Of a DNA stretch of 60,005 bases, positions 5,238 through 60,005 are shown piece by piece. The position numbers were made by a program, and so were the translations under genes. Position 1 is the first letter of the stretch. Every line of letters begins with the position of its first letter. Where the stretch lies: the NCBI GenBank assembly GCA_015065065.1, contig SVQX01000006.1, positions 1 to 60,005 on the forward strand, in the 5' to 3' direction. This DNA is from Oscillospiraceae bacterium (GTDB lineage: Bacteria; Bacillota; Clostridia; Oscillospirales; CAG-272). The notes under the pieces are model-generated. The model searched no databases. It was not told the origin of the DNA and saw nothing but the letters and a program-made list of their open reading frames with translations.

Positions 5238-5292
5238 TTCGGGCGTTAATAATGATTTTCAAAAAAGCCCTCGAAAGGGGCAGAAACACAAC

Positions 5293-5426
5293 TATCTTTG
5301 AGGATTGGTGAAATTCCATACCGGTGGTAAAGCCCACAAACGCGCCGAAAAACGACGCGCCGAGCAGGTGAGAGTCCTGCGCCGACGGTGTTGCGATGAG
5401 TCGCAGAGTCCGGATGAGAAAAGATA
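5293..5426 (+). ncRNA. FMN riboswitch (RFN element)
   Basis: tatctt...ggtgaaattccataccggtggtaaagcccac...ggtgagagtcc...gccgacggt...agtccggatgagaaaagata follows the RFN consensus; upstream of an ECF S-component; terminator-like hairpin with T-run at about 5498-5529. Confidence 0.92.
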
Positions 5427-5562
5427 AAAAAAGGCCGCGGCTGCGGCACTCCATGCAAATAAGAGAGGCTCTGTTCAAGCCTTGCAAAAAGGATGTATCC
5501 CTCTCGAAAGTCAAGAGAGGACTTTTTTTATTCTTTTCCGTTATCTCGGAAAGGAAAAGCAA

Positions 5563-13420: not shown

Positions 13421-15211
13421 GTGATGGCTTTGAAGCGTTTGTTCGGATACCTGCGTCCGTTTGGAAAACGGATGTCGGTAGGTCTTGTTATCAAGATCAT
13501 GGGAACGCTTGTCGAGCTGGCGCTCCCTTACATTCTGAGTATTATTTTAGACGAGGCAGTTCCCGCCGCGGCGGCGGCAGGGGACACGGGTGCGGGTATT
13601 CGAGGTATAATATTCTGGAGCTGTATGATGCTTGTTTGTACCGTCGCGGCTCTTGTGCTTAACATTACCGCCAACAGAATGGCGTCGGGTGTGGCAAAGG
13701 ACGCTGCGCGCAATATCCGTCACGACCTGTTCGACAGCACAATGCGGCTGTCCTGCAATCAGGTGGATGAGTTTACAGTTCCCAGCCTTGAATCCCGACT
13801 TACCTCTGACACCTACAACGTACATCACGTCATTGGAATGATACAGCGACTCGGAGTACGCGCGCCTATTCTGCTTATCGGCGGAATAGCCATTACATTG
13901 TCGCTTGACGCAACTCTTGCGCTTGTAATGCTTGCGGTACTGCCCTTTATATCGCTTACCGTATATATCGTTTCAAGGCGCGGTGTTAAGCTGTACCGCA
14001 ATTCGCAGCGAGCGGGTGACGAGATGGTGCGTATCGTCCGAGAGGACGTTCAGGGAATTCGCGTTATCAAGGCTCTGTCACGAAAGTATTACGAGCGGAA
14101 GCGGTATGCCGCCTCCGTGGACAAGCTGGTGGGAGCGGAAACAAAAGCCTCTCTTACCATGTCGATCTCCAATCCGCTGATGAATGTTTTTCTCAACCTC
14201 GGACTTGTTGCCGTGCTTTTTGTCGGCGCCTTGCGCGTTGACGGCGGCGAGTGCGCTCCGGGTAAGATAATTGCGTTCATTCAGTATTTTACGCTTATCT
14301 CAAACGCCATGCTGTTCGTCACGCGCATATTTATGATGTGTACCAAGGGTAGCGCGTCCATGAACAGAATTTGCGAGGTTATCGACGCGGCAAATGCTCA
14401 GCCTGCACAGGTAGAGGATCAGCCGTCCGATATCACGGGTGGCGACGGCGACTACCTCACGTTTGATGGAGTGGACTTCTCCTATTTCGGATACAAGGGT
14501 GGCGCACTTAATCTGTCGGACGTAAGCTTTTCGCTCCGACGGGGCGGCACGCTCGGAATTATCGGAGCTACGGGTAGCGGGAAGACTACGGTTTTGTCCT
14601 TGCTCATGCGCTTTTACGAGCTTCCGACAAATTGCGGCAGAATATTGCTGGATGGCAAGGATATCCGAGAGATACCTCCGCGTCAGCTCCGCCGTCGCGT
14701 GGGAATCGCTATGCAGAACGATTTTCTGTACGCGGGAACTATTGAAGAAAATATCGATTTTGGCAGAGGGCTGTCCCACGAGGAGATAGTCCGCGCCGCG
14801 GAAATAGCGCAGGCGGCTGATTTTATAGGTGCGCTTGCCGACGGCTACGAACACAAAATTACCGCGAAGGGTACTAACCTCAGCGGCGGACAAAAGCAGA
14901 GATTGCTTATCGCTCGCGCCGTTGCGGGAAATCCCGAAATACTTATCCTTGACGATGCATCCTCCGCGCTTGACTATCGCACCGATGCCGCGCTTCGCGC
15001 GCGACTCCGCGAGCTTGCGGGCGAGGGAGGCACTCCCATAACCTCTATCGTTGTTGCACAGCGTATAAGCTCGGTGCAGTATGCAGATCTTATACTCGTG
15101 CTTGACGGAGGAAAGATAATCGGAAGCGGAACCCACGAGGAGCTGCTTGAGAGCTGTGACGTGTACCGTGAGATATCCGAGTCGCAGATGGGAGGTGCTA
15201 TTCTTGACTAA
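13421..15211 (+). CDS. ABC exporter, fused TMD-NBD subunit A of a heterodimer (degenerate site)
   Basis: GATGSGKT, LSGGQKQR, ILDDASSALD and VAQRIS (degenerate Walker B and H-switch typical of heterodimeric exporters). Confidence 0.92.
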   Translation: MMALKRLFGYLRPFGKRMSVGLVIKIMGTLVELALPYILSIILDEAVPAAAAAGDTGAGIRGIIFWSCMMLVCTVAALVLNITANRMASGVAKDAARNIRHDLFDSTMRLSCNQVDEFTVPSLESRLTSDTYNVHHVIGMIQRLGVRAPILLIGGIAITLSLDATLALVMLAVLPFISLTVYIVSRRGVKLYRNSQRAGDEMVRIVREDVQGIRVIKALSRKYYERKRYAASVDKLVGAETKASLTMSISNPLMNVFLNLGLVAVLFVGALRVDGGECAPGKIIAFIQYFTLISNAMLFVTRIFMMCTKGSASMNRICEVIDAANAQPAQVEDQPSDITGGDGDYLTFDGVDFSYFGYKGGALNLSDVSFSLRRGGTLGIIGATGSGKTTVLSLLMRFYELPTNCGRILLDGKDIREIPPRQLRRRVGIAMQNDFLYAGTIEENIDFGRGLSHEEIVRAAEIAQAADFIGALADGYEHKITAKGTNLSGGQKQRLLIARAVAGNPEILILDDASSALDYRTDAALRARLRELAGEGGTPITSIVVAQRISSVQYADLILVLDGGKIIGSGTHEELLESCDVYREISESQMGGAILD

Positions 15212-17021
15212 GCGTAAGAATATGGCGGAGAATACCTCTCCCGCCGAGAAAAAGACCTCCCGCCGCCGCGTGCTGTGGCGCGTGTGCGGATATATTTTCG
15301 AGCATAAATGGCTTATGCTCACAGCCTTTGCAGTTATGCTCGTCGCAAATGTTATCGCGCTTGTCGCGCCTTACTATTCGGGACTTGTGATAAACGCTAT
15401 TGAGCCGGGGCGCGGCAGTGTGGATTTTGAAACGGTAGGCTACTACTGTACTTTGCTTGTGATCATATACGTCGTGTCGGCGGCGTTTACCTATCTTTTG
15501 TCCTTTATCATGGTAAGGATAAGCCAGCGCATAGGCGCAAGAATGCGCCGACAGGTGTTTGACCATTTGACGGATCTGCCCGTAAGCTATTTTGACAGCC
15601 ACCAGACGGGCGATATCATCAGCCACATCTCCTACGATATCGACACCGTAAATGCATCTCTTTCAAACGATCTGCTTCAGATAGCCACAAGTGTTATTAC
15701 GGTGGTCGGCTCGCTTGCAATGATGCTGTCCATATCTCCGATCTTGTCCCTTGTATTTGCGGTCACTGTGCCGATATCGCTTGTGTTTGCAAAGTACAGA
15801 ACGCAAAAGGTGCGCCCAATGTTCCGCAAGCGCTCCAAGAAGCTGGGAGAATTGAACGGCTATGCGGAGGAGATGCTGTCGGGACAGCGTACTATCAAGG
15901 CGTACAGCATTGAAAATGTCATAGTGGATCGCTTTGACGGACACAACGAGGACGCTTGCGACGCATATTACCGCGCCGACTACCACGGCTCCGTTATCGG
16001 ACCTACCATGATATTCATAAACAATCTGTCCCTGACGCTGATAACGGCGCTGGGCGGACTGTTCTATCTGTTCAGCATAACCGATCCGAACCTCCCGCTC
16101 ATATTTGTTATCGACCTTGGAATGGTGTCGGCATTCGTTCAGTATTCACGCAAATTCTTCGGTCCTATCAACGAGTTTGCAAATATTTTGAGCGAAATAC
16201 AGTAGGCTACCTCTGCCGCCGAGCGCGTATTTGCTCTGCTTGACGAGCCCACCGAGCCCGCGGACGGGGAGGATGCTGTCGTCCTCTCGGGTGCAGAGGG
16301 AGATATCAAAATGGAGGACGTGCGCTTCGGCTACACCGAGGCAAAGGAGATACTTCACGGCGTAAATATCCATGCCGAGCGGGGTAAAACTATTGCTATC
16401 GTAGGACCTACTGGAAGCGGAAAGACCACGGTCATCAATCTCCTTATGCGCTTTTACGATCATAATAGCGGTAAGATACTGTTCGACGACAAGGAGCTAT
16501 CAGGCCTTACCCGCGACAGCCTGCGCTCCGCGTATACCATGGTGCTTCAGGACACGTGGCTGTTCTGCGGAACGGTGCTTGACAATATTACCTACGGTAC
16601 TGACGGTGCGACGAGGGAGGACGTTATCCGCGCAGCGAAGGCGGCGCGTATCCACGACTTTATAATGACTCTACCCGAGGGATATGATACTGTCTTGTCG
16701 GACGACGGCGTTAATATATCCAAGGGACAAAAGCAGCTTATAACCATAGCCCGAGCTATGCTTTCCCGCGCGCCTGTCCTGATACTTGACGAGGCGACGT
16801 CAAACGTGGATTCACGCACTGAAAAGCTGATACAGAACGCGCTGTACGCGCTCATGTCGGGCAGAACGTGTATCGTTATCGCCCACAGACTTTCCACTAT
16901 CCAGAACGCAGACAGGATACTCGTGGTGCGCGACGGATGCATTGAGGAGCAGGGAACACATAACGAGCTGCTTGAACGAGGCGGATTTTACGCTTCTCTT
17001 TACAACGCACAATTCAAATAA
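15204..17021 (+). pseudogene. ABC exporter subunit B, interrupted by one in-frame TAG at 16203-16205
   Basis: TMD ORF and NBD ORF (GPTGSGKT, ISKGQKQ, LDEATS, IAHRLS) are in the same frame; junction reads SEIQ*ATSAAERVFALLD; could be a real nonsense allele, a consensus error or readthrough. Confidence 0.8.
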
Positions 17022-17036: not shown

Positions 17037-18050
17037 ATGAGCTCCGAAATGATACTCAAGGAATTTCCGCGCGGCGCGGATTGCCTTATTGACCTTCATC
17101 TTCATCTTGATGGCTCGCTGTCGGCGGACTGCGTGCGCCAACTTGGACAGATGCAGGAGATAGACGTTCCCGACGGCGACGTGCTTGACAGAATGCTGTC
17201 GGTGTCAGAGGGCTGCCGCGACCTTAACGAATATCTTGAAAAATTCGATTTTCCGCTGTCCCTGCTTCAAACCGAGGAGGCTATCGCATACGCGGTGCAG
17301 TCGCTGGAGGACAGATTGCTCGACGAGGGTGTAATGTATGCGGAGATACGCTTTGCACCCCAGCTTCATACGCGCAGAGGACTCACGCAAGAGCAGGTGG
17401 TGCGTGCCGCAATATACGGAAACAGCCGCTCGCCGCTTCGGGCAAGCCTTATTCTGTGCTGTATGCGAATGGGTGACAATAAGGCGGAAAATCTTGAAAG
17501 TATCCGCCTCGCTGCCAAGTATCTCGGATGCGGTGTGTGCGCCGCAGATTTGGCAGGTGCTGAGGCACTGTTTGAAAACGCGAGATTTGAGGAAGAATTT
17601 TCCCTCGCCCGTCAGCTTTGCCTGCCCTTTACTCTCCACGCAGGCGAGGCGTCGGGCGCTGATAGCGTGCGTACCGCTCTTGAGATGGGTGCGCGGCGTA
17701 TCGGTCACGGCGTGCGAAGCCTTGAGGACGGGGAAGTAGTCAAGTCCTTGGTCGAGCGAGAAATTCTCCTTGAGCTTTGTCCCACGAGTAATCTTAATAC
17801 GAACATGTTTGAAAACCTTTCGCAGTATCCTCTGCGGGAGCTGATGGCGGCGGGTGTTCGTGTCAGCATCAATACCGATAATACCGCCGTTTCCCGTACC
17901 TCCATAAGACGGGAGTGGGATTGCGTTATATCGCAGTTTTCGCTGACCGCGCAAGAGGTAAAAAAAATACTTTGCGACACGGCAGAGTCGTCCTTTGCGA
18001 ACGCTGAGACCGTGGCGTTTATGAAGGAAAAGATCCAAAACTGTTTTTGA
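17037..18050 (+). CDS. add: Adenosine deaminase
   Basis: DLHLHLDGS, YAEIRFAP, DLAGAE, HAGE, RIGHG, ELCPTSN, NTDN. Confidence 0.92.
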   Translation: MSSEMILKEFPRGADCLIDLHLHLDGSLSADCVRQLGQMQEIDVPDGDVLDRMLSVSEGCRDLNEYLEKFDFPLSLLQTEEAIAYAVQSLEDRLLDEGVMYAEIRFAPQLHTRRGLTQEQVVRAAIYGNSRSPLRASLILCCMRMGDNKAENLESIRLAAKYLGCGVCAADLAGAEALFENARFEEEFSLARQLCLPFTLHAGEASGADSVRTALEMGARRIGHGVRSLEDGEVVKSLVEREILLELCPTSNLNTNMFENLSQYPLRELMAAGVRVSINTDNTAVSRTSIRREWDCVISQFSLTAQEVKKILCDTAESSFANAETVAFMKEKIQNCF

Positions 18051-18874
18051 AAGCTGAACCTAAAATGAAACCCAAGAGAAAAATAATTGATGCACATACC
18101 CACATATTTCCCGACAAAATTGCCGAAAAGGTGTCCGAAAACATAGGAGCGTTTTACGGGCTGGATTGGTATAGCCCTGCGTCCGTCGGAAATCTTATCT
18201 CGGCGGGTAATGAGATCGGCGTTTGTCATTATCTCGTCTGCTCGACTGCTACCGTGGTGTCGCAGGTAGAGCATATCAACGATTTTATTGCCTCAGTCGC
18301 GGCGGCACATCCCGAATTTACCGCGCTGATGGCACTTCATCCCGACTTTGAAAATTACGAGGAGGAGCTTGACCGCGGAATGAAAATGGGACTTCGCGGA
18401 GTCAAGCTGCACCCCGATTTTCAACGCTTTAATATGGACGAGGAGCGGCTTATTCCCATGTACCGCGCTATCGCTAAAAGAGGACTTCCTTTGCTTATTC
18501 ACATGGGCGACGAGAGATATGAATACTCCCGTCCCTGCCGTCTGGCACAGCTTATGCGCGCTGTTCCCGATCTTACCGTCATAGCGGCGCACTTTGGCGG
18601 GTATCAGAGATGGGAGGAGGCACTTGACACCCTGCCGCCCTCCCCAAATCTGTGGTTTGACACGTCAAGCTCGCTGGGAATACTGTCCTACGACAACGCA
18701 ATGCGGCTTATGGAGCGGTTTGGAGTGAATAAATTTATGTTCGGTACGGATTTTCCGATATGGAGTCCCTCGGTTGAGGTCGAAAAGGTGGAAAAATTAC
18801 CCCTGTCTGACGCGGAATTTGAGCTTGTATTCTCCGAAAACTTCAAAAGATTGTTCAATATGTCCAATGTTTGA
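18047..18874 (+). CDS. Amidohydrolase family (Amidohydro_2-like) protein
   Basis: IIDAHTH, GVKLHP, LIHMG, AAHFGG, FGTDFP; start may instead be ATG 18065. Confidence 0.85.
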   Translation: MKAEPKMKPKRKIIDAHTHIFPDKIAEKVSENIGAFYGLDWYSPASVGNLISAGNEIGVCHYLVCSTATVVSQVEHINDFIASVAAAHPEFTALMALHPDFENYEEELDRGMKMGLRGVKLHPDFQRFNMDEERLIPMYRAIAKRGLPLLIHMGDERYEYSRPCRLAQLMRAVPDLTVIAAHFGGYQRWEEALDTLPPSPNLWFDTSSSLGILSYDNAMRLMERFGVNKFMFGTDFPIWSPSVEVEKVEKLPLSDAEFELVFSENFKRLFNMSNV

Positions 18875-18911
18875 TGCCTTGGCAAAGTGTAAAAACATTA
18901 AAAATACCATA

Positions 18912-18940
18912 TTGACAAATCGGCGGCGAGTGATTATAAT
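18912..18940 (+). promoter_or_regulatory. sigma-A promoter of the T-box operon
   Basis: TTGACA 18912-18917, 17 bp spacer, TATAAT 18935-18940. Confidence 0.88.
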
Positions 18941-18957
18941 ATTTAGTATAAAAGCAA

Positions 18958-19231
18958 AATGCGTTGATGGAATTAAGGACTTCGTTACAGCACACAGAGA
19001 GTTGGCGGTGGGTGCGAGCCAATGCGTAGGGACGAAGCTGCTGTCTCATTCCGGAGCAGGACTTTTGAAACAACAGTAAAGAGTCACGGGAGCGCCCGTT
19101 AAAGCGCGGCGGTTTGAAAGTGAACCGTATGAGAGGTCGCCTGTATCTTGGCGGCAAGCGGGGTGGTACCGCGACTGAAATGTATTTCAGCCGTCCCCAT
19201 GGCATTAAGTCATGGAGGCGGCTTTCGTTTT
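18958..19231 (+). ncRNA. T-box riboswitch, probable Leu (CUC) specifier
   Basis: Stem I with AGAGA and GGTGCGA motifs, CTC-A at 19045-19048, T-box aagcggggtggtaccgcg 19156-19173, terminator agccgtccccatgg...catggaggcggct-ttcgtttt 19189-19231. Confidence 0.9.
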
Positions 19232-19267
19232 GCCTCTGTGGAAATTTTCAGAAAGTAGGGTAAAAAA

Positions 19268-20683
19268 ATGAAAAAAGTAATATTTACCGATGTGACCTTG
19301 CGCGATAGCTTCAAGGGAGGCGAGTGTGTTTATACCTTTAAGGAAAGAGTGGAGATAGCAAAGGTGCTGGATAAGCTGCACGTTGACAGAATTTGTCTTT
19401 CTCCCATAGAAAACGTGACGGCTGACACAATGATAGTACGCACTATGGCGGCGGTGGTAAAAAACAGCGTGCTGTCCATGCCCGTAGGATTTACGGCTGA
19501 GTCTGTTGACCTTGCGTGGAATGCAGTGTCCGTTGCGAAAAAGCCCGAGCTGCTTGTTGCCGTTCCCACGTCGGCGGTGCAGATGGAATACATCTGCCAC
19601 AGAAAAGCGCCCAAGGTAATGGAAATGATTTCGGAGCTTGTAGGCGCGGCAAGAGTTAAATGTGAGCGAGTAAACTTCGCGGCTGTTGATGCGACCAGAA
19701 GCGACATGCCAATTCTCGCCGAAGCAATAAAGACAGCGGTCGATAACGGCGCGACAGAGGTAACTCTGTGCGACAGCGCGGGAATTTTCCTGCCTGATGA
19801 GATGGCGAATTTTATTGCTGACGTTATGGCGGCGGCTCCCGTTATTGCGGAAAAGGGAATTGCTGTAAGCGTACAATGCTCCAATGCCCTCAGCGTAGGT
19901 GCGGCGTGCGCCGTAGCGGCTGTCAAGAACGAAGCTGTGTGCGGCGTTTGCGTGTCCGTCGGTGGCGGTGACAGCGCGCCTGCTCTTTCCGAAATGGCAC
20001 AGATAATGAGAATAAAGGGCGACGATTGCGGCTTTTCGTGTGGCATCAAGACCACCGAGCTTCAGCGCTCGCTCCGTCAGCTCGGGCTTGTGGAAAAGAT
20101 CGCGGGCGGAGCGGCTCAGGCAGAGTCGGCGGATTCCACGGAGAGCTTCGTGCTTGACAAAAACGACGATATTGCCACCGTTGCGAAGGCGATAAAAAAG
20201 CTGGGCTACGACCTGTCCGACGAGGACGTGTCTAAGGTATACGAGTCCTTCTGCACCGTCGCCAAGCAAAAGACGGTGGATGCCCGCGAGCTTGACGCTA
20301 TTATTGCGTCGGTTGCGCTGCAGGTGCCTCCAACGTACCGACTTATAAGCTACGTTATCAACAGTGGCAGTCACATCTCCTCTACCGCCAATATTCAGGT
20401 AGAGAAGGACGGCGAAATGATAAGCGAGGTGTGCGCGGGATTTGGACCTATCGACGCGGCATTTCTGGCTGTTGATGCCGTGGTAGGCACGAGATACGAG
20501 CTGGACGATTTCCAGATACAGTCCGTGACCGAGGGCAAGGAGGCTATGGGAAGCGCACTGGTTCGACTTCGCGCAGGCGGAAAGCTGTATTCGGGAACGG
20601 GCATCTCCACCGATATAATCGGTGCGTCCATTCGTGCTTACGTCAACGCCATCAACAAGATAGCCTACGAAGAAAAGGTTTGA
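19268..20683 (+). CDS. 2-isopropylmalate synthase (LeuA)-like protein; catalytic motifs degenerate, C-terminal regulatory domain retained
   Basis: DVTLRDSFK for DTTLRDGEQ, QCSNA for HxHND, no GERxGN; C-terminal GFGPIDA...STDIIGASIRAYVNAINK. Confidence 0.85.
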   Translation: MKKVIFTDVTLRDSFKGGECVYTFKERVEIAKVLDKLHVDRICLSPIENVTADTMIVRTMAAVVKNSVLSMPVGFTAESVDLAWNAVSVAKKPELLVAVPTSAVQMEYICHRKAPKVMEMISELVGAARVKCERVNFAAVDATRSDMPILAEAIKTAVDNGATEVTLCDSAGIFLPDEMANFIADVMAAAPVIAEKGIAVSVQCSNALSVGAACAVAAVKNEAVCGVCVSVGGGDSAPALSEMAQIMRIKGDDCGFSCGIKTTELQRSLRQLGLVEKIAGGAAQAESADSTESFVLDKNDDIATVAKAIKKLGYDLSDEDVSKVYESFCTVAKQKTVDARELDAIIASVALQVPPTYRLISYVINSGSHISSTANIQVEKDGEMISEVCAGFGPIDAAFLAVDAVVGTRYELDDFQIQSVTEGKEAMGSALVRLRAGGKLYSGTGISTDIIGASIRAYVNAINKIAYEEKV

Positions 20684-20701
20684 TAAAACGAGGTAATCAA
20701 A

Positions 20702-23218
20702 ATGAAGCTGTCATTTTCCACAAAGGGCTGGGACTCCTATACCTGGGCGCAGTTTTGTGACAAGGCGGAGGAGCTTGGCTTTAACGGCATAGAAATTCAT
20801 GATATACACCACCCCGCATTCACGGGTAAGAACGATGTTTTTGACCCGACCATGATCCGCGCTACGTACAGAAATCTCGTCGACCGAGGACTTTGTGTAC
20901 CCTGTGTTGATACTGCGGCGAATATTGCCGACGGCGATAGCCTTGACGCGGGTGTTAGCGAGATTACCGAATGTATCCGCACGGCGGCGGCGTTGCACAT
21001 TCCCTTCGTGCGCATACACACCACGGGTGCGAAGGATAAGGACGCGGCGGAGGTGGACACCACCGTTTGCAGGTATCTTGATGCGCTTCGTCCCGTGGCT
21101 GTCGGCTCTGAAGTGACGCTTATAATCGAAACCGTCGATGCTTACGCCGATACGCATAGACTTAAAAACGTGCTTGATACCTATGCCGATGATAATATCG
21201 GCGCTCTGTGGGATATGCACCACACCTACCGCATGGGCGGCGAGAGCGCGCAGACGTCGCTTCAAAACCTCGGCGCATATATTCGCCATATTCACCTCAA
21301 GGACTCGGAGGTGGTAGGGGACAGAGTGGAATATCGCCTTATCGGTGAGGGCTCTCTCCCTCTTGACGACATGATGAAGGCGCTCCGCTCTATCAATTAC
21401 GAGGGCTTTATCTCACTTGAATGGGACCCCACGTGGCTTAGTGAGCTTGCGGATATGGATATTATATTCCTGCACTTTACGAGCTATATGTCAAAATACG
21501 AGAGCGGTGTCCGCAAAAAGCGCAAGAAGCTGTATGAAAACAAGACTCACACGGGCAAATTTGTGTGGCAGAAGGACTCGCTTATCGATATGACCTTCTC
21601 GGAGGTGCTGGATAAGCAGGTGGAGGAATTTCCGGATCAGTACGCCTTTAAGTATACCACGCTTGACTATACCCGTACCTACGAGGAGTTCCGCGACGAC
21701 GTGGATACCTTTGCCCGCGCGCTGGTGGATATGGGGGTTAAGGCGGGAACGCACGTTGCCGTCTGGGCTACGAATATACCGCAATGGTACATCACCTTCT
21801 GGGCAACGGTAAAGCTGGGCGCGGTGCTTGTTACCGTAAATACGGCTTACAAGGTACACGAGGCAGAATATCTGTTCCGTCAGTCGGACACCCATACGCT
21901 TGTTATGGTGGAGGGCTACCGCGACTCAAATTATAAGGAAATAATAAAGGAGCTTTGCCCCGAGCTTGAAAACCACCGTGCGGGAGAGCCGCTCCATGCA
22001 AAGCGTCTGCCTTTCTTGCGCAATGTCATCACCGTCGGCTTCCGGCAGAAGGGATGTCAGACGTGGGACGAGGCTGTGGCAAGACACGACCGCGTGCCGC
22101 TTGAGGAGGTCCGCAGAATGGCGGCGAAGGTATCTCCTCAGGACGTTTGTAATATGCAGTATACCTCGGGTACGACGGGCTTCCCCAAGGGAGTAATGCT
22201 TACCCATTATAACGTAGTCAACAACGGTAAATGTATCGGCGACCGAATGGATTTGTCTACCGCCGACAGAATGATGATACAGGTACCCATGTTCCATTGC
22301 TTCGGAATGGTGCTGTCCATGACGGCGACCATGACGCACGGAGGAACGCTGTACCCAATTCCTTATTTCTCCCCGAAATCCGCATTGGCTTGCATTGACA
22401 AGGAGCATATCACAGCATTCAACGGCGTGCCCACAATGTTTATCGCCATGTTTAACCACGAGGATTACAGAAAGACGGATTTCTCATACATGAGAACGGG
22501 AATCATGGCAGGCGCGAATTGCCCCGCCGACCTTATGAAGCGCGCAGCACAGCCGGACGAGATGAATATGACGGGAATCGTCAGCGTTTACGGACAAACG
22601 GAGGCTTCTCCGGGCTGCACCATGGGCGAGATAGACGAGCCGCTTGACGAAAGATGCGAAACGGTGGGAAGGGCATTCCCGCACGTTGAATGTAAGATTA
22701 TAGACCCCGAAACGGGACTTGATTGCCCCGACGGAGTGAACGGTGAATTTGTTGCGCGAGGCTACAACGTCATGAAGGGATATTACAAAATGCCCGAGGC
22801 GACTGCGGCTACGATCGATGCTGACGGATGGCTCCATTCGGGTGATATCGCCTGCCGCGAGCCGAGCGGCACCTATCGCATCACGGGCAGACTGAAGGAT
22901 ATGATAATCCGCGGCGGCGAGAACATCTATCCCAAGGAGATAGAGGAATTTCTCTACACCAGCCCCAAGGTAAAGGACGTTCAGGTCATAGGAGTTCCCG
23001 ACAAGCAGTACGGCGAGGAAATAATGGCTTGTATCATTCTCAAGGAGGGAGAGGAGTCCTCGGTCGAGGAAATGAAGGCGTTTGTCGCATCTCATATGGC
23101 AAGGCATAAGGTGCCGAAGTATATAGAGTTTGTAAATTCCTTCCCCATGAACGCCGCAGGCAAGATACTCAAGTATAAGATGCGCGAGGCGGCGGCAGAG
23201 AAATACGGGCTTAACTGA
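20702..23218 (+). CDS. Fusion of a xylose-isomerase-like (AP_endonuc_2) TIM barrel and an AMP-dependent acyl-CoA synthetase
   Basis: N-terminal IET, WDMHH, HIHLKD, SLEW metal-site motifs; C-terminal YTSGTTGFPKG, YGQTE, WLHSGD, GRLKDMIIRGGENI, GKILK. Confidence 0.9.
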   Translation: MKLSFSTKGWDSYTWAQFCDKAEELGFNGIEIHDIHHPAFTGKNDVFDPTMIRATYRNLVDRGLCVPCVDTAANIADGDSLDAGVSEITECIRTAAALHIPFVRIHTTGAKDKDAAEVDTTVCRYLDALRPVAVGSEVTLIIETVDAYADTHRLKNVLDTYADDNIGALWDMHHTYRMGGESAQTSLQNLGAYIRHIHLKDSEVVGDRVEYRLIGEGSLPLDDMMKALRSINYEGFISLEWDPTWLSELADMDIIFLHFTSYMSKYESGVRKKRKKLYENKTHTGKFVWQKDSLIDMTFSEVLDKQVEEFPDQYAFKYTTLDYTRTYEEFRDDVDTFARALVDMGVKAGTHVAVWATNIPQWYITFWATVKLGAVLVTVNTAYKVHEAEYLFRQSDTHTLVMVEGYRDSNYKEIIKELCPELENHRAGEPLHAKRLPFLRNVITVGFRQKGCQTWDEAVARHDRVPLEEVRRMAAKVSPQDVCNMQYTSGTTGFPKGVMLTHYNVVNNGKCIGDRMDLSTADRMMIQVPMFHCFGMVLSMTATMTHGGTLYPIPYFSPKSALACIDKEHITAFNGVPTMFIAMFNHEDYRKTDFSYMRTGIMAGANCPADLMKRAAQPDEMNMTGIVSVYGQTEASPGCTMGEIDEPLDERCETVGRAFPHVECKIIDPETGLDCPDGVNGEFVARGYNVMKGYYKMPEATAATIDADGWLHSGDIACREPSGTYRITGRLKDMIIRGGENIYPKEIEEFLYTSPKVKDVQVIGVPDKQYGEEIMACIILKEGEESSVEEMKAFVASHMARHKVPKYIEFVNSFPMNAAGKILKYKMREAAAEKYGLN

Positions 23219-23235
23219 TTTTCAAGGAGAAAGCA

Positions 23236-26200
23236 ATGAGCGAAAATAACAAGAATTTTAAACGGGAGACCGTTACAATGGACGGTAACGAGGCGGCGGC
23301 GCATATAGCTTACGCCTTTACCGAGGTGGCGGCGATATATCCCATAACCCCCTCATCTCCCATGGCCGGCAAGACGGATGCGTGGAGTGCGAAGGGCAAG
23401 AAAAACCTTTTCGGTCAGCCTGTGACTCTTGTTGAGATGCAGTCAGAGGCGGGAGCGGCAGCGGCAGTACACGGCGCGCTCGAATCGGGCTCGCTTGCCA
23501 CCTCCTTCACCTCATCGCAGGGACTTATGCTGATGATCCCCGTAATGCACCGCATTTCGGGACAGCTGCACCCCGGCGTGCTTCACGTTGCATCTCGCAC
23601 CGTGGGAACTCACGCATTTTCGATCTTCGGAGATCATTCGGACGTTATGAACTGCCGTCAGACCGGCTTTGCTATGCTGTCCACGGCAAGCGTTCAGGAA
23701 ATAATGGATATTTCGGCAGCGGCGCACCTTGCCGCTATCGAGAGCCGTGTGCCGTTCCTGCATTTCTTTGACGGCTTCCGTACATCACACGAAATTTCCA
23801 AGGTGGAGCTTATGCCCTACGAGGCGCTCGCTCCGCTTGTAAACTACGACGCGCTTGAAGCCTTCCGCGCTCACGCACTTAATCCCGAGCATCCGCTCCT
23901 GCGCTCCACCGTGCAGAATCCGGATATATATTTCCAAGTCCGTGAAGCGTCAAACGCTTATTACGACAGCCTGCCCGATATTGTTGAAAAATATCTCGGC
24001 GAGCTGAGTAAGATATGCGGCAGGGAATACCACCTCTTTAACTACTACGGTGATAAGGATGCAGAGGATATCATTATCGCTATGGGCTCGGTCAGCGGAA
24101 CGGTAAAGGAAACGGTGGACTACCTCAACGCAAAGGGACGCCGCGTCGGCTTTTTGCAGGTACACCTGTTCCGCCCCTTCTCGTTTGAGTATTTCCGCAA
24201 GGCTATCCCGGCATCCGTCAAGCGCATAGCAGTGCTTGACCGTTGCAAGGAGATGGGCGCCGCGGGTGAGCCGCTGTATCAGGATGTGCGCACCGCATTT
24301 TACGACGACGCGCAGAACGGAACCGCGCCGCTGGTTATCGGCGGAAGATACGGTTTGTCCTCCAAGGACACCGATCCCGCGCAGATAATCGCCGTATTTG
24401 ATAATCTTGCATCCGATAATCCCAAGAACGGATTTACTATCGGTATTGAGGACGACGTTACTCGCCATTCTCTGAAGCTGACCGAGCGCGTATATCCCGA
24501 TGACGAAAGGTACGAGCAGATAAACTGCAAATTCTGGGGACTCGGCTCTGACGGTACGGTAGGCGCAAATAAGTCAACCGTTGAGATAGTCAGCCAGCAT
24601 ACCGATAAATACGGTCAGGCGTACTTTGAGTACGATGCGAAAAAGTCTTACGGAGTAACCAAATCGCACCTTCGCTTTTCAGATTATCCCATTCGCTCCA
24701 GCCATTTCGTAAAGCACGCGGATTTCGTCGCGTGTCATAATCCTACATACGTATACCACTACGATATGATCTCCGAGCTGAAGGAGGGCGGCACGTTCCT
24801 GCTTGCCTGCCCGTGGAGCGCCGAGGAGCTTGAAGTAAAACTGCCCGCCTCCGTCAAGCGCGATTTGGCAGCTAAACACGCAAGCTTCTACGTAATCGAC
24901 GCGGCGAAAATAGCCGCAGAGTGCGGGCTTGGCAATCACACCAATATGGTGCTTCAATCTGCCTTTTTCCACCTGTCGGGACTGCTTCCCATAGACGAAG
25001 CGATGGACTATATGAAGGCGGGCGTGCGCAAGATGTACTTCGCCAAGGGCGAGGATGTAGTAAACAACAATATTGCCGCAATAGAGCGTGGCGGCTCGGG
25101 GCTTGTAAGGATCGAGATACCGTCCGCGTGGGCTGATGCCGTGAATGAAAACGGTAACGCTGCGAACGACCGCCCCGACGTTGTAAAGAATATTCTTGAG
25201 CCTATCAACGCTCAAAAGGGCGATGACCTGCCCGTTTCCGCCTTCAAGGGCTACGAGGACGGCGCTATCCAAATGGGACTTACCGCCTACGAAAAGCGCG
25301 CTATTGCAACCAAGGTTCCCGTTTGGAATCCCGAGGCATGCCTGCAATGTAACAGATGTTCTTATGTCTGCCCCCACGCGGTGATCCGTCCTTATCTTTT
25401 GGACGAGGCCGAAAGTGCTGGCGCGCCTGCCGATATGAAGCTTGTCCCCGCCAAGGGTGTCAAGGGACTTAAGCTGGATTATACCTTACAGATAAGTCGC
25501 GACGACTGCACGGGCTGCTCCTCCTGCGTAAACTGCTGTCCCGCAAAGGATAAGGCGCTTCGTATGGTGAGCGTTGATGAGGCAGAGGACACGTCGGCGG
25601 CTTGGGAGTACGGACTTGGAGTCAGCGAAAAGAGCAACATTTTTGATATCTACACCGTAAAGGGAAGCCAGTTCAAGCAGCCGCTTCTTGAATTTTCTGC
25701 GGCGTGCGCCGGATGCGGCGAAACGCCTTACGCGAAGCTGCTCACCCAGCTTGTCGGCGACAGAGTATATTGGGCAAACGCTACGGGCTGCTCGCAGGCG
25801 TGGGGCTCCCCCATGCCGGGAATTCCTTATACCACTAATAAAAAGGGGCATGGCCCCGCGTGGTCGAACTCGCTGTTTGAAAACAATGCGGAATTTTCCC
25901 TCGGTATGTGTCTGTCCGTCAAGATGCAAAGGCAGGCACAGCTCATCCGTGCAAAGAGATTGAGGGATATGGTTGAGGGTAATGCCGCGCTTGCATCCGC
26001 ACTTGACGCATGGATCGCCGATTTTGACAGCATGGACGACTCTCGTAAATCAGGCGAAGCCCTTGTAACCGCGCTTGAAGCCTGCACTCTTGACGGAGCG
26101 GCTGACGGCGTAAAGAGGGATATCCTTATCCACCGCGACCAGCTGTCCAAAAAGAGCTTCTGGATGTTCGGCGGCGATGGCTGGGCATATGATATCGGCT

Positions 26201-26781
26201 TTGGCGGACTTGATCACGTGCTTGCACAGGGCGAGCCCGTAAAGGTGTTTATCGTTGATACCGAGGTGTATTCCAACACGGGCGGACAGTCGTCAAAGGC
26301 GACACCTCTCGGTGCTGTGGCGCAGTTCTGCGCATCGGGCAAGAAGAGTCCCAAGAAGGACCTTGGCGCAATACTTATGACCTATGGAAACGTGTACGTC
26401 GCGCAGGTCGCGATGGGCGCGGACTATAATCAGACGGTCAAGGCGATAAAGGAGGCGGAGGCGTTTGACGGTCCTGCCGTGATCATCGCGTATACTCCTT
26501 GCTCTGCGCACGGAATCCGAGGCGGACTCGGCAACGCGCAGATGGAGATGAAGCGCGCGGTTGATGCGGGATATTGGAAGCTGTACCGCTTTGATCCGTC
26601 AAAGGAACAGCCGCTTACCCTTGATTCTGGCGAGCCCACCTTGAATTTTGAGGACTTCCTCATGGGAGAGGTGAGATATTCGTCTCTGACGCGCACCTTC
26701 CCCGAAAACGCTAAGGAAATGTTTAAGGAGGCGGGAGAATCCGCTGCCCGCGACTACGAAAAGTATAAGAATATGAAATAA
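23236..26781 (+). CDS. Single-chain 2-oxoacid:ferredoxin oxidoreductase (PFOR/NifJ family)
   Basis: YPITPSS, EMQSEAGA, GLGSDGTVGANK, two CxxCxxCxxxCP motifs, ACAGCGE, GGDGWAYDIG, YSNTGGQ; 1181 aa. Confidence 0.95.
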   Translation: MSENNKNFKRETVTMDGNEAAAHIAYAFTEVAAIYPITPSSPMAGKTDAWSAKGKKNLFGQPVTLVEMQSEAGAAAAVHGALESGSLATSFTSSQGLMLMIPVMHRISGQLHPGVLHVASRTVGTHAFSIFGDHSDVMNCRQTGFAMLSTASVQEIMDISAAAHLAAIESRVPFLHFFDGFRTSHEISKVELMPYEALAPLVNYDALEAFRAHALNPEHPLLRSTVQNPDIYFQVREASNAYYDSLPDIVEKYLGELSKICGREYHLFNYYGDKDAEDIIIAMGSVSGTVKETVDYLNAKGRRVGFLQVHLFRPFSFEYFRKAIPASVKRIAVLDRCKEMGAAGEPLYQDVRTAFYDDAQNGTAPLVIGGRYGLSSKDTDPAQIIAVFDNLASDNPKNGFTIGIEDDVTRHSLKLTERVYPDDERYEQINCKFWGLGSDGTVGANKSTVEIVSQHTDKYGQAYFEYDAKKSYGVTKSHLRFSDYPIRSSHFVKHADFVACHNPTYVYHYDMISELKEGGTFLLACPWSAEELEVKLPASVKRDLAAKHASFYVIDAAKIAAECGLGNHTNMVLQSAFFHLSGLLPIDEAMDYMKAGVRKMYFAKGEDVVNNNIAAIERGGSGLVRIEIPSAWADAVNENGNAANDRPDVVKNILEPINAQKGDDLPVSAFKGYEDGAIQMGLTAYEKRAIATKVPVWNPEACLQCNRCSYVCPHAVIRPYLLDEAESAGAPADMKLVPAKGVKGLKLDYTLQISRDDCTGCSSCVNCCPAKDKALRMVSVDEAEDTSAAWEYGLGVSEKSNIFDIYTVKGSQFKQPLLEFSAACAGCGETPYAKLLTQLVGDRVYWANATGCSQAWGSPMPGIPYTTNKKGHGPAWSNSLFENNAEFSLGMCLSVKMQRQAQLIRAKRLRDMVEGNAALASALDAWIADFDSMDDSRKSGEALVTALEACTLDGAADGVKRDILIHRDQLSKKSFWMFGGDGWAYDIGFGGLDHVLAQGEPVKVFIVDTEVYSNTGGQSSKATPLGAVAQFCASGKKSPKKDLGAILMTYGNVYVAQVAMGADYNQTVKAIKEAEAFDGPAVIIAYTPCSAHGIRGGLGNAQMEMKRAVDAGYWKLYRFDPSKEQPLTLDSGEPTLNFEDFLMGEVRYSSLTRTFPENAKEMFKEAGESAARDYEKYKNMK

Positions 26782-26795
26782 TATTCAAAGCATAA

Positions 26796-26824
26796 GGGCT
26801 GAGTCAACGCGACTCAGCCTTTTT
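26796..26824 (+). terminator. Rho-independent terminator closing the T-box operon
   Basis: ggctgagtc-aacgc-gactcagcc followed by a T-run. Confidence 0.85.
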
Positions 26825-26839
26825 GCGTATTTGTAATTT

Positions 26840-27426
26840 GTGTGCTGCTTTTTGCATCAACAGAAAGTAGTCAAATATTGACCAAAGGTTGGGAGGATGA
26901 GTCGTGATTTCAATTTTTACAAAATTGAAATTGCACTCCCCAATTCCTCCCTCCCTTTGGAAACCCACCCACTTTGGAGCTTGGCTCGTGGGCGAAAAGC
27001 CATCATGCAAACGCTCTTGCAAATTATACCGATAAGTCGCAAATTGGAAATCAGACACACCCGATGTAGCGGTGATTTATTGGGGGGCAACACCGAAAAA
27101 GATTTGAAATTTTTCTCGTTGCACTTAATTTTTAAATCTCATACGGCTTTAAAACAACCGCCCGCCCAAGGCGCACTCTTATCGACCAAGTTTCCGTCGC
27201 TCCGACGGGAACTTGGCGAGATGGGTATGCGGCAACTTTTGCGCGCGATTACGCCTTGCCCGCATACTTGCGGCAAGGCGGCGCGCAGAGGAAGGTGAGA
27301 TTCTTAAGAGAGGAAACCGTGGGTTTCCTCTCTTAAGTCGCCCTTGGTTACTTCTGTCGATACAGAAGTAACACAAATATTTTAATTATTTCTTGTGTTG
27401 CTTCTGCCGACACGGCAGAAGCAATA
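26840..27426. repeat. Cluster of REP-like hairpins
   Basis: At least six inverted repeats, e.g. ccaagtttccgtcg/cgacgggaacttgg, cttaagagaggaaacc/ggtttcctctcttaag, gttacttctgt/acagaagtaac, ttgcttctgccg/cggcagaagcaa. Confidence 0.65.
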
Positions 27427-27560
27427 CGTAATTTCACTCTCCAAACCATACACCTCTATGCACAAAAAAATAAAATATTAAAAAACACTTGATTTGGAGG
27501 GGATTGTGTGGTATATTATATATAGTAAGATGTCCAAAAATCACGAAAGGAGCGACGGCT

Positions 27561-46196: not shown

Positions 46197-46282
46197 AAAA
46201 AAACCTCCTTTTGCCTGCTCATAGGGCAGGAAAGGGAGGAGCGCACGGAAGCATCCGTGTGAAAATTCTCTTTTTGCCGTAT

Positions 46283-46382
46283 GAAGCGGGATGCAAAGCC
46301 CGAACCGCGGCGGCATATCCGCCTTCGTCCGATCGGCAACTCCCCGTCCTATCGGCACTTGACGCTCGTGCTTTTACTCTTC
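46283..46382 (-). ncRNA. THF riboswitch
   Basis: Minus strand reads gaagagtaa...gcgtcaagtgccg...ggacggggagttgcc...cggacgaag...gcggt...gcatcccgcttc, matching the THF aptamer consensus. Confidence 0.9.
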
Positions 46383-46421
46383 AAATCAAGCGGAAACATA
46401 TTTTTTCCCACTTATGCGAAT

Positions 46422-59618: not shown

Positions 59619-60005
<387 letters not shown>

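Follow-up and report, generated by a model that had tools for sequence, protein, structure and literature searches.

Introduction

In the rumen, leucine is formed from isovalerate by carboxylation and amination, according to the section of PMC7356843 that cites Allison and co-workers (1962, 1966), and rumen methanogens use isovalerate and 2-methylbutyrate for leucine and isoleucine, as stated in an excerpt of PMC10658910. Among the searchable papers, no gene set, T-box control, LeuA-like partner or one-subunit pyruvate:ferredoxin oxidoreductase (PFOR) has been assigned to the isovalerate route. Here, we analyse a three-gene operon at positions 18912-26824 of a stretch of 60,005 nucleotides, hereafter called the window, from an Oscillospiraceae bacterium of the order Oscillospirales, family CAG-272 (contig SVQX01000006.1 of assembly GCA_015065065.1). 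The operon starts with a T-box leader carrying a leucine specifier, and it encodes a LeuA-like protein, a fusion of a triose-phosphate isomerase (TIM) barrel with an acyl-CoA ligase, and a PFOR paralogue. It is probably induced by leucine starvation and would make leucine from exogenous isovalerate. The proposed chemistry (activation, reductive carboxylation, amination) is the same as in the rumen route, as are the habitat and the dependence of the organisms on branched acids; however, the rumen route is known from physiology and labelling.

Several parts of the operon resemble described enzymes. The first gene shares with LeuA (TIGR00973; PDB entries 3EWB and 3RMJ) an HMGL-like TIM barrel followed by a C-terminal LeuA_dimer allosteric domain, and it is placed directly behind a Leu T-box, as is leuA in other bacteria according to a portion of PMC2700814. 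However, it is without the metal and substrate ligands of LeuA, its equivalog scores are far under the cut-offs, and its family conserves the regulatory domain better than the barrel. The third gene has the domain order and length of the PFORs from Desulfovibrio africanus and Moorella thermoacetica (PDB entries 1B0P and 6CIN, about 1300-1425 bits) but departs from them at the substrate pocket, and it stands under a Leu T-box while a canonical PFOR is encoded elsewhere in the genome. In relatives, the usual oxidoreductase of the module is the 2-ketoisovalerate or branched-chain 2-oxoacid:ferredoxin oxidoreductase (VOR, VorB family NF005507), whereas the genome of the window has no VorB orthologue and the one-subunit PFOR paralogue takes its place in the operon. 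The route formed by indolepyruvate oxidoreductase and phenylacetate-CoA ligase follows the same logic of a ligase coupled to a 2-oxoacid:ferredoxin oxidoreductase, and it is found in the same genome behind a T-box read as Phe, but it uses the IorAB and PaaK-like families, serves another amino acid and lies on another contig. Work by Allison in 1965 reportedly described the conversion of aryl acids to aromatic amino acids. Finally, an enzyme of the PFOR superfamily from Clostridium sporogenes acts on branched 2-oxoacids, as reported in the accessible part of 10.1101/401489.

The operon or its gene set was not found described in searchable full texts, a scope that leaves out subscription journals and supplements, where a comparative T-box study could list the genes. 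In a 2026 review of PFOR diversity, the word "branched" did not occur in the text covered by a term search. The pathway and the enzyme families are known. What appears to be undescribed is the genetic module with its T-box logic, along with the retention of a dead LeuA and the re-tooling of a PFOR.

Results

A leucine T-box precedes three close-set genes

The features of the operon, in window coordinates, are as follows.

18912-18940, + strand: sigma-70 promoter, TTGACA-17-TATAAT, 12/12 consensus matches
18955-19201, + strand: T-box leader, Rfam RF00230, 110.3 bits against a gathering score of 93, E-value 1.6e-23, model positions 1-219 (full)
19045-19047, + strand: specifier codon CUC (Leu), from the Rfam alignment position and the sequence, followed by A at 19048 and a UUCC helix
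19161-19173, + strand: conserved T-box sequence GGGUGGUACCGCG, the pairing partner of the acceptor end of the tRNA, from the sequence and a motif scan
19189-19232, + strand: leader terminator, hairpin 19189-19223 followed by the U-run UUUCGUUUU, 14 pairs in the minimum free energy fold of 19150-19245
19268-20683, + strand: gene 1, LeuA-like protein, 471 aa
20702-23218, + strand: gene 2, TIM-barrel/acyl-CoA-ligase fusion, 838 aa
20702-21511, + strand: N-terminal xylose-isomerase-like TIM barrel (AP_endonuc_2) of the fusion, PF01261 99.9 bits against 31.1, residues 20-242
21587-23218, + strand: ANL acyl-CoA ligase domain of the fusion, proposed isovalerate-CoA ligase, PF00501 300.5 bits and PF13193 64.2 bits, residues 303-821
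23236-26781, + strand: gene 3, one-subunit PFOR paralogue, 1181 aa
26797-26824, + strand: operon terminator, 10-pair hairpin 26797-26819 followed by TTTTT

The promoter at 18912-18940 is the sole perfect site among the ten promoter-like sites in 18500-27500, a number that is not in excess of the 7.6 +/- 3.1 seen in shuffled sequences. The three genes are separated by 18 nt (genes 1-2) and 17 nt (genes 2-3). Inside the operon, the + strand contains only one promoter-like site, a weak 9/12 match at 22998-23025, and no convincing independent promoter for the PFOR gene was found. One promoter, one T-box, three close-set genes and one terminator, as listed in the initial annotation, are all present at their positions. 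The sequencing runs listed for 18900-26850 are DNA from the faeces or gut of animals, with no RNA run among them.

In T-box regulation, uncharged cognate tRNA stabilises an antiterminator, leading to read-through into the downstream genes. The genome encodes a tRNA-Leu(GAG), on contig C53, that matches the CUC specifier. For comparison, we scanned species-representative genomes with the fusion protein and kept the best 80 loci of at least 600 matches, nearly all of them from metagenome-assembled genomes from the guts of ruminants and other animals. Among 56 aligned leaders (55 relatives and the window) the specifier column is CUC in 45 and CUG in 11, with nothing else. Variation restricted to synonymous leucine codons is the expected behaviour of a true Leu specifier, and the earlier assignment of the codon to leucine is borne out in all 56 leaders. 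In 55 out of 80 loci, the motif scan finds a T-box no more than 400 nt ahead of the LeuA-like gene; the 25 others include loci that are shortened upstream and loci where the LeuA-like gene directly follows an aminotransferase. A Rfam match confirms the T-box ahead of the LeuA-like gene in five of the eight relatives scanned.

The module accompanies the absence of LeuB and the presence of VorB

The assembly of the window genome has 1.89 Mb in 63 contigs and is 95.9% complete. At this completeness, no canonical LeuA above cut-off was found, and leuB, leuC and leuD, whose absence had been noted for the window, are found neither there nor in the rest of the genome. The sole aconitase-family gene is a PRK11413 hydratase and the sole Iso_dh gene an NADP isocitrate dehydrogenase, located side by side on contig C61. 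In addition, ilvD is present, as well as one ilvE-type branched-chain aminotransferase on contig C56. With ilvD and ilvE present and leuA, leuB and leuC absent, the valine/isoleucine trunk is kept and only the leucine branch is missing.

We compared 251 genomes of the order that have a completeness of 90% or more, with the group sets compiled by hand from the result tables. The VorB-type alpha subunit was counted at an E-value of 1e-130 or better and LeuB above its cut-off, and an unfused orthologue of the ligase is one with 47-56% identity.

Fusion: about 105 genomes; LeuB lacking in 74; VorB-type alpha subunit in 97
Unfused ligase only: 39 genomes; LeuB lacking in 18; VorB-type alpha subunit in 34
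Neither ligase form: 107 genomes; LeuB lacking in 22; VorB-type alpha subunit in 22

The ligase module thus goes with the absence of LeuB, a co-occurrence named as a check in the initial annotation, and with the branched-chain 2-oxoacid:ferredoxin oxidoreductase, and this association spans many families. In the family of the window, all five genomes with the fusion are without LeuB, and all five genomes with LeuB are without the fusion.

Gene order in relatives

Among the best 80 loci, 71 have 1.5 kb or more of sequence ahead of the fusion, and in all 71 the LeuA-like gene is directly upstream of it. A gene with the Amidohydro_2 fold follows within 1.5 kb downstream in 37 of the 72 loci, from the same set, that have at least 900 nt there. 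Where the sequence extends for 5.5 kb or more in both directions (35 loci), a complete three-subunit 2-oxoacid:ferredoxin oxidoreductase is found in 14, a class IV aminotransferase in 13 and a PFOR in three. The alpha subunit of the oxidoreductase belongs to the VorB family (NF005507, 541 bits against 399). Judging from these loci, related gut and rumen Clostridia share a conserved core made up of the Leu T-box, the LeuA-like protein and the TIM-barrel/ligase fusion, and the usual partner is a VorB-type enzyme, often beside a branched-chain aminotransferase. The three-gene synteny with a PFOR, as described in the initial annotation, is the rare form.

One locus (L020) contains the complete set. 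Its T-box scores 86 bits, which is less than the gathering score, and has CUC as its specifier. Behind it come a 246-aa open reading frame (ORF), VorB with the beta and gamma subunits, the aminotransferase, then the LeuA-like gene, the fusion and finally the amidohydrolase. All these genes lie behind the single Leu T-box, closely spaced save for one gap of 232 nt.

In four other loci (L051, L061, L073 and L084), further T-boxes are located ahead of acyl-CoA ligases that are fused to helix-turn-helix (HTH) and cupin domains. Four of their specifiers read AUC (Ile) and one GUA (Val), and VorB-type subunits are found further downstream in all four loci. With Leu, Ile and Val T-boxes on separate ligases beside VorB, these loci have one T-box-controlled ligase for each branched-chain amino acid and one shared oxidoreductase. 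Among the indirect arguments for the function of the ligases, this arrangement is the strongest. The HTH_19/Cupin_2 ligases are 755-797 aa long (L051:9606-14805, L061:10644-13233, L084:6971-9545, L073:4336-4577), and a ligase joined to a DNA-binding domain is reminiscent of the BirA ligase-repressor. In L051, a CbiA-like gene comes after the HTH-cupin ligases; CbiA/ParA-like P-loop proteins of 229-233 aa are encoded just before the VorB-type genes at L087:10603-11292 and L051:14815-15516.

We also examined ten genomes with an unfused ligase orthologue at the level of the locus. None of the ten loci has a LeuA-like neighbour. A T-box motif is present 100-130 nt upstream of the ligase in six, five of which read CUC, and a separate TIM-barrel gene is directly downstream of the ligase in four, one of them (L106) with an amidohydrolase as well. 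According to this pattern, it is the ligase that stays constant under Leu control, whereas the TIM barrel recurs beside it in two architectures and the LeuA-like gene is tied to the fused form.

A PFOR paralogue in place of VorB

Gene 3 encodes a full-length one-subunit PFOR (TIGR02176, 1698.6 bits against a cut-off of 911.35, positions 2-1165 of 1167) that is 53% identical to the other PFOR of the genome, on contig C62. The latter has a canonical pyruvate pocket, so the PFOR of the operon is not the only one in the genome.

In the PFOR of D. africanus, Thr31 and Arg114 bind the carboxylate, and Leu121, Ala219, Ile843, Asn996 and Met1202 form the wall of the methyl pocket; mutating the archaeal equivalents of Ile843 and Asn996 altered the specificity (both from the accessible portion of PMC5020499). 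Using this numbering, we transferred the pocket positions via PDB alignments and compared 14 PFORs, seven of the operon type and seven others. The operon-type proteins form one clade together (support 1.000). Thr31, Arg114 and Asn996 are kept in all 14, as in the D. africanus and M. thermoacetica enzymes. In all seven operon-type proteins, position 843 is Ala, 842 is Gln, 219 is Val and 217 is a residue other than Gly, whereas all seven others have Ile at 843, Ser at 842 and Gly at 217, with Ala at 219 in six and His in one. The changes A219V, S842Q and I843A, at residues that line or adjoin the pocket for the methyl group of pyruvate, are thus present in 7/7 members of the operon-type clade and 0/7 other PFORs. 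At positions 121, 219, 843 and 996, the operon PFOR has F, V, A and N against L, A, I and N in the second PFOR of the genome; compared with the solved enzymes, it carries L121F, A219V and I843A with the neighbouring S842Q and G217S. The position of Met1202 falls in a C-terminal extension that is missing from the gene 3 protein. The pocket changes fit an altered 2-oxoacid preference of the operon PFOR, and we propose that gene 3 encodes a 4-methyl-2-oxopentanoate (2-oxoisocaproate) synthase.

Only three other PFORs in the 251 genomes are at least 65% identical to gene 3 (in G088, G163 and G217), with the next best at 59%. The gene is directly downstream of the fusion in G088 and G163, and in G217 it is found on a 6.9-kb contig. 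Further PFORs of the operon type come from the contig scan (L008, L043, L059 and a partial L013). None of the eight genomes with an operon-type PFOR has a VorB orthologue at 75% identity or more: no VorB is found in the genome of the window (G000), G251, G254 and G088, and only paralogues at 43-50% in G252, G253, G163 and G217. In contrast, the three fusion genomes examined without an operon-type PFOR (G255, G012 and G190) have VorB at 86-100%. G000, G088 and G163 make up three of the eight fusion genomes without a VorB-type enzyme in the 251-genome sample. By this distribution, a second PFOR takes the place of the VorB-type enzyme in the lineage of the window.

The LeuA-like protein has lost its catalytic residues

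Gene 1 matches the Pfam domains HMGL-like (PF00682, 95.9 bits) and LeuA_dimer (PF08502, 106.1 bits, profile positions 2-130 of 131). It fails the LeuA equivalog cut-offs, with 246.7 against 598.7 bits for TIGR00973 and 264.1 against 532 bits for NF002086. The catalytic and metal-binding residues of LeuA are, as we take them, the Asp of an LRD motif, a His-x-His pair and a Glu. In an alignment to the solved catalytic domains (3EWB and 3RMJ), the His-x-His of LeuA corresponds to Q203-C-S205 of gene 1, the Glu of the E-D-A-T-R motif to V140, and the G-E-Q after L-R-D to S-F-K. Across 73 family members, the His-x-His and Glu columns vary, as does the Arg-Asp pair, and the residues listed at the two positions of the His-x-His do not include His.

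The two halves of the protein are conserved to a different degree. The mean identity of the 73 family members to the window protein is 37% for residues 1-290 and 66% for residues 330-470. The C-terminal 172 residues have no sequence match in PDB at an E-value of 0.01 or better. With the metal and substrate ligands lost and the allosteric domain intact, the LeuA-like protein is, by all these residues, not an isopropylmalate synthase. Our reading is that it no longer condenses acetyl-CoA with a 2-oxoacid and is retained for its allosteric domain. It might, as a speculative guess from the conservation pattern, be a leucine-sensing regulatory or scaffolding partner of the ligase. It had been labelled a degenerate LeuA, which is right as to the loss of the catalytic site, but the protein is not mere debris, since it is conserved and has an intact regulatory domain.

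The TIM-barrel/ligase fusion

Among 76 relatives, the mean identity is 77% for the ligase part of the fusion and 43% for the TIM barrel. Both Pfam domains of the ligase score above their cut-offs. Its residues Y487-G497, Y630-E634, D715 and K821, which correspond to the core motifs of ANL adenylation, show little or no variation among 59 sequences. In PDB, the ligase domain matches generic enzymes, for example fatty-acyl-, feruloyl- and malonyl-CoA ligases.

Four residues of the TIM domain, E31, E181, H196 and D201, are invariant. Based on family knowledge and strand position, we take E143, D171, H198 and E240 of the window protein to be the canonical Glu-Asp-His-Glu metal quartet, and all four are kept in only 32 of 68 relatives. 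In the fusions of L008-L087, the states at these positions are EDHE in 32 loci, ENHV in 14, KDHE in 14 and others in eight. An amidohydrolase is nearby in 17 loci with EDHE and missing in 15, compared with 12 and two for ENHV and one and 13 for KDHE. No simple rule that ties the metal-ligand state of the TIM domain to the presence of the amidohydrolase emerges from these counts. The PDB matches of the TIM domain and of the amidohydrolase are proteins of unknown function or distant decarboxylases. In the ESM Atlas, the TIM domain and the amidohydrolase of a relative matched only within their own Pfam families.

The amidohydrolase and other neighbours

Upstream of the promoter, the window contains a counterpart of the amidohydrolase gene that follows the fusion in relatives.

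18047-18874, + strand: Amidohydro_2-fold protein, 275 aa, PF04909 110 bits, no NCBIfam name

Its identity to the gene that follows the fusion in the 37 of 72 loci mentioned above is 35-44%, and its closest solved structures are of unknown function. The gene stops 37 nt short of the promoter and shares 4 nt with the adenosine deaminase gene upstream. Transcription of the amidohydrolase in this lineage therefore seems to come from the preceding operon and not from the T-box promoter. The deaminase (337 aa) and amidohydrolase genes together cover 17037-18874, and genes of an ATP-binding cassette (ABC) transporter (ABC_membrane, ABC_tran) are located upstream of the deaminase at 13421-17021.

Elsewhere, the window contains a flavin mononucleotide (FMN) riboswitch at 5290-5429 on the + strand, a tetrahydrofolate (THF) riboswitch at 46282-46383 on the - strand, and the initial 387 nt of a 16S rRNA gene at 59619-60005 on the + strand.

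On contig C48 of the same genome (L115:2635-6628, equal to G000:C48:8134-12127), a T-box with 86.9 bits, below the gathering score, shows UUC (Phe) at the specifier position when aligned to the Rfam model. Downstream of it come IorA (713 bits), IorB, a PaaK-like phenylacetate-CoA ligase (512 bits, below cut-off), a 144-aa ORF and DAHP synthase. This unit looks like an operon for the carboxylation of phenylacetate to phenylalanine.

Discussion

A pathway from isovalerate and CO2 to leucine is supported by the comparative genomics, while for the identity of the substrate and the direction of the oxidoreductase we infer the following scheme. Uncharged tRNA-Leu(GAG) would cause antitermination at the T-box, and transcription from the promoter at 18912 would then proceed through the three genes. 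The ligase domain of the 838-aa fusion would convert isovalerate, which is abundant in the gut, to isovaleryl-CoA. The PFOR paralogue, or VOR in relatives, would use isovaleryl-CoA, CO2 and reduced ferredoxin to make 4-methyl-2-oxopentanoate, and the branched-chain aminotransferase of contig C56 would turn this into leucine. The initial annotation had outlined these three steps. Comparative genomics supports this pathway, but the amidohydrolase and the TIM barrel belong to the module as well and the scheme does not explain them.

Several observations weigh against this interpretation. The best NCBIfam match of the ligase is a generic fatty-acid CoA ligase, below cut-off, and the acid substrate is not legible from the sequence. 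Two of the three pocket changes in the PFOR, L121F (seen here) and A219V, enlarge the side chains, so the pocket is not necessarily larger. The LeuA-like barrel, the TIM barrel and the amidohydrolase are conserved, yet none of them has a step in the scheme of ligase, oxidoreductase and aminotransferase; moreover, the TIM barrel and the amidohydrolase recur beside the unfused ligase as well, which hints at chemistry beyond the scheme. LeuB is also present in 31 of the 105 fusion genomes, so the module is no simple replacement for it, and since the genomes compared are related, such counts overstate the independence of the cases.

The main rival is a longer pathway, in which the ligase activates another leucine precursor and the TIM barrel and the amidohydrolase add steps on the way to isovaleryl-CoA or 2-oxoisocaproate; we regard it as unlikely. 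It would account for the TIM barrel staying with the ligase in two architectures (fused in about 105 of 251 genomes, as a separate gene at four of ten unfused loci), for the amidohydrolase that follows the fusion in 37 of 72 loci and the unfused ligase and TIM gene in L106, and for the invariant E31, E181, H196 and D201 of the TIM domain. The folds would also allow it, with an isomerase or dehydratase for the TIM barrel and a hydratase, lactonase or reversible decarboxylase for the amidohydrolase. However, no more than 32 of 68 fusions retain the canonical metal quartet, the amidohydrolase is missing at 35 of the 72 loci with enough downstream sequence, and the sequences name no candidate substrate. 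Further, no acyl-CoA dehydrogenase domain, needed for a passage via 3-methylcrotonyl-CoA, was found in the genome of the window. A de novo route via 3-hydroxy-3-methylglutaryl-CoA (HMG-CoA) and 3-methylcrotonyl-CoA was set aside because the LeuA-like site is dead, the LeuA-like protein is absent beside the unfused ligases, and this same domain is lacking.

Alternatively, isovaleryl-CoA might serve as a primer for iso-branched fatty acids when leucine, from which this primer usually comes, is scarce, so that leucine is spared, with the PFOR working oxidatively or on pyruvate. Rumen bacteria do incorporate branched acids into lipids, and a Leu T-box by itself shows only that the genes are switched on under leucine limitation. 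Still, we find this role improbable, as it leaves three observations unexplained: the tight link, in genomes and operons, to a branched-chain oxidoreductase and aminotransferase, the link to the absence of LeuB, and the replacement of VorB by a PFOR in exactly those genomes.

Another reading, which has very little probability, takes the LeuA-like protein for a divergent yet functional synthase of isopropylmalate or citramalate, supplied with acetyl-CoA or pyruvate by the PFOR in the remnant of a classical leucine operon. Both Pfam and NCBIfam place gene 1 nearest to LeuA, and a Leu T-box ahead of leuA is known in Geobacter, according to the section on this genus in PMC2700814. Against this stand equivalog scores under half of the cut-offs, a metal-binding His pair that has become Gln and Ser with no His listed at either position in 73 family members, and an Arg-Asp pair that is not conserved. 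In addition, no leuB, leuC or leuD was found to take the product, and the PFOR paralogue departs from housekeeping PFORs at its substrate pocket. Operation in the catabolic direction, from leucine via 2-oxoisocaproate and isovaleryl-CoA to isovalerate, is hardly credible despite the reversibility of 2-oxoacid:ferredoxin oxidoreductases and the need of C. sporogenes for a PFOR-superfamily enzyme to produce branched short-chain acids (from the available text of 10.1101/401489), as induction by uncharged tRNA is the wrong signal for degrading the cognate amino acid, AMP-forming ligases spend ATP and are not used for acid release, and the module is enriched in genomes otherwise unable to make leucine.

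Beyond the synthesis of leucine from isovalerate by this one operon, a wider picture can be drawn tentatively. The Oscillospirales of gut and rumen may possess a hitherto undescribed gene system, regulating itself, for the conversion of branched fermentation acids to branched-chain amino acids, with one T-box-controlled ligase each for Leu, Ile and Val. Sensor modules could be attached to these ligases, the dead LeuA as the leucine-binding regulatory subunit of the Leu ligase and the HTH-cupin fusion for Ile and Val, and a branched-chain 2-oxoacid:ferredoxin oxidoreductase would be shared among them. In a few lineages, that of the window among them, a duplicated one-subunit PFOR might have been re-tooled to a 2-oxoisocaproate synthase that takes the place of this oxidoreductase.

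For sixty years, fibre-degrading bacteria of rumen and gut have been known to depend on branched-chain acids, and feed supplementation makes use of this; the genes of the leucine branch are unassigned in the searchable papers. The module, which occurs in 105 of the 251 sampled genomes of the order, offers testable candidates for them: a ligase, a dedicated oxidoreductase and a leucine-responsive RNA switch. Automatic annotation would label gene 1 as 2-isopropylmalate synthase and gene 3 as pyruvate:ferredoxin oxidoreductase, and with such labels metabolic models would mis-score both leucine auxotrophy and carbon flow. If the interpretation is true, a biosynthetic enzyme kept just for its allosteric domain, together with a PFOR with a remodelled pocket, would be an instructive case of enzyme repurposing.

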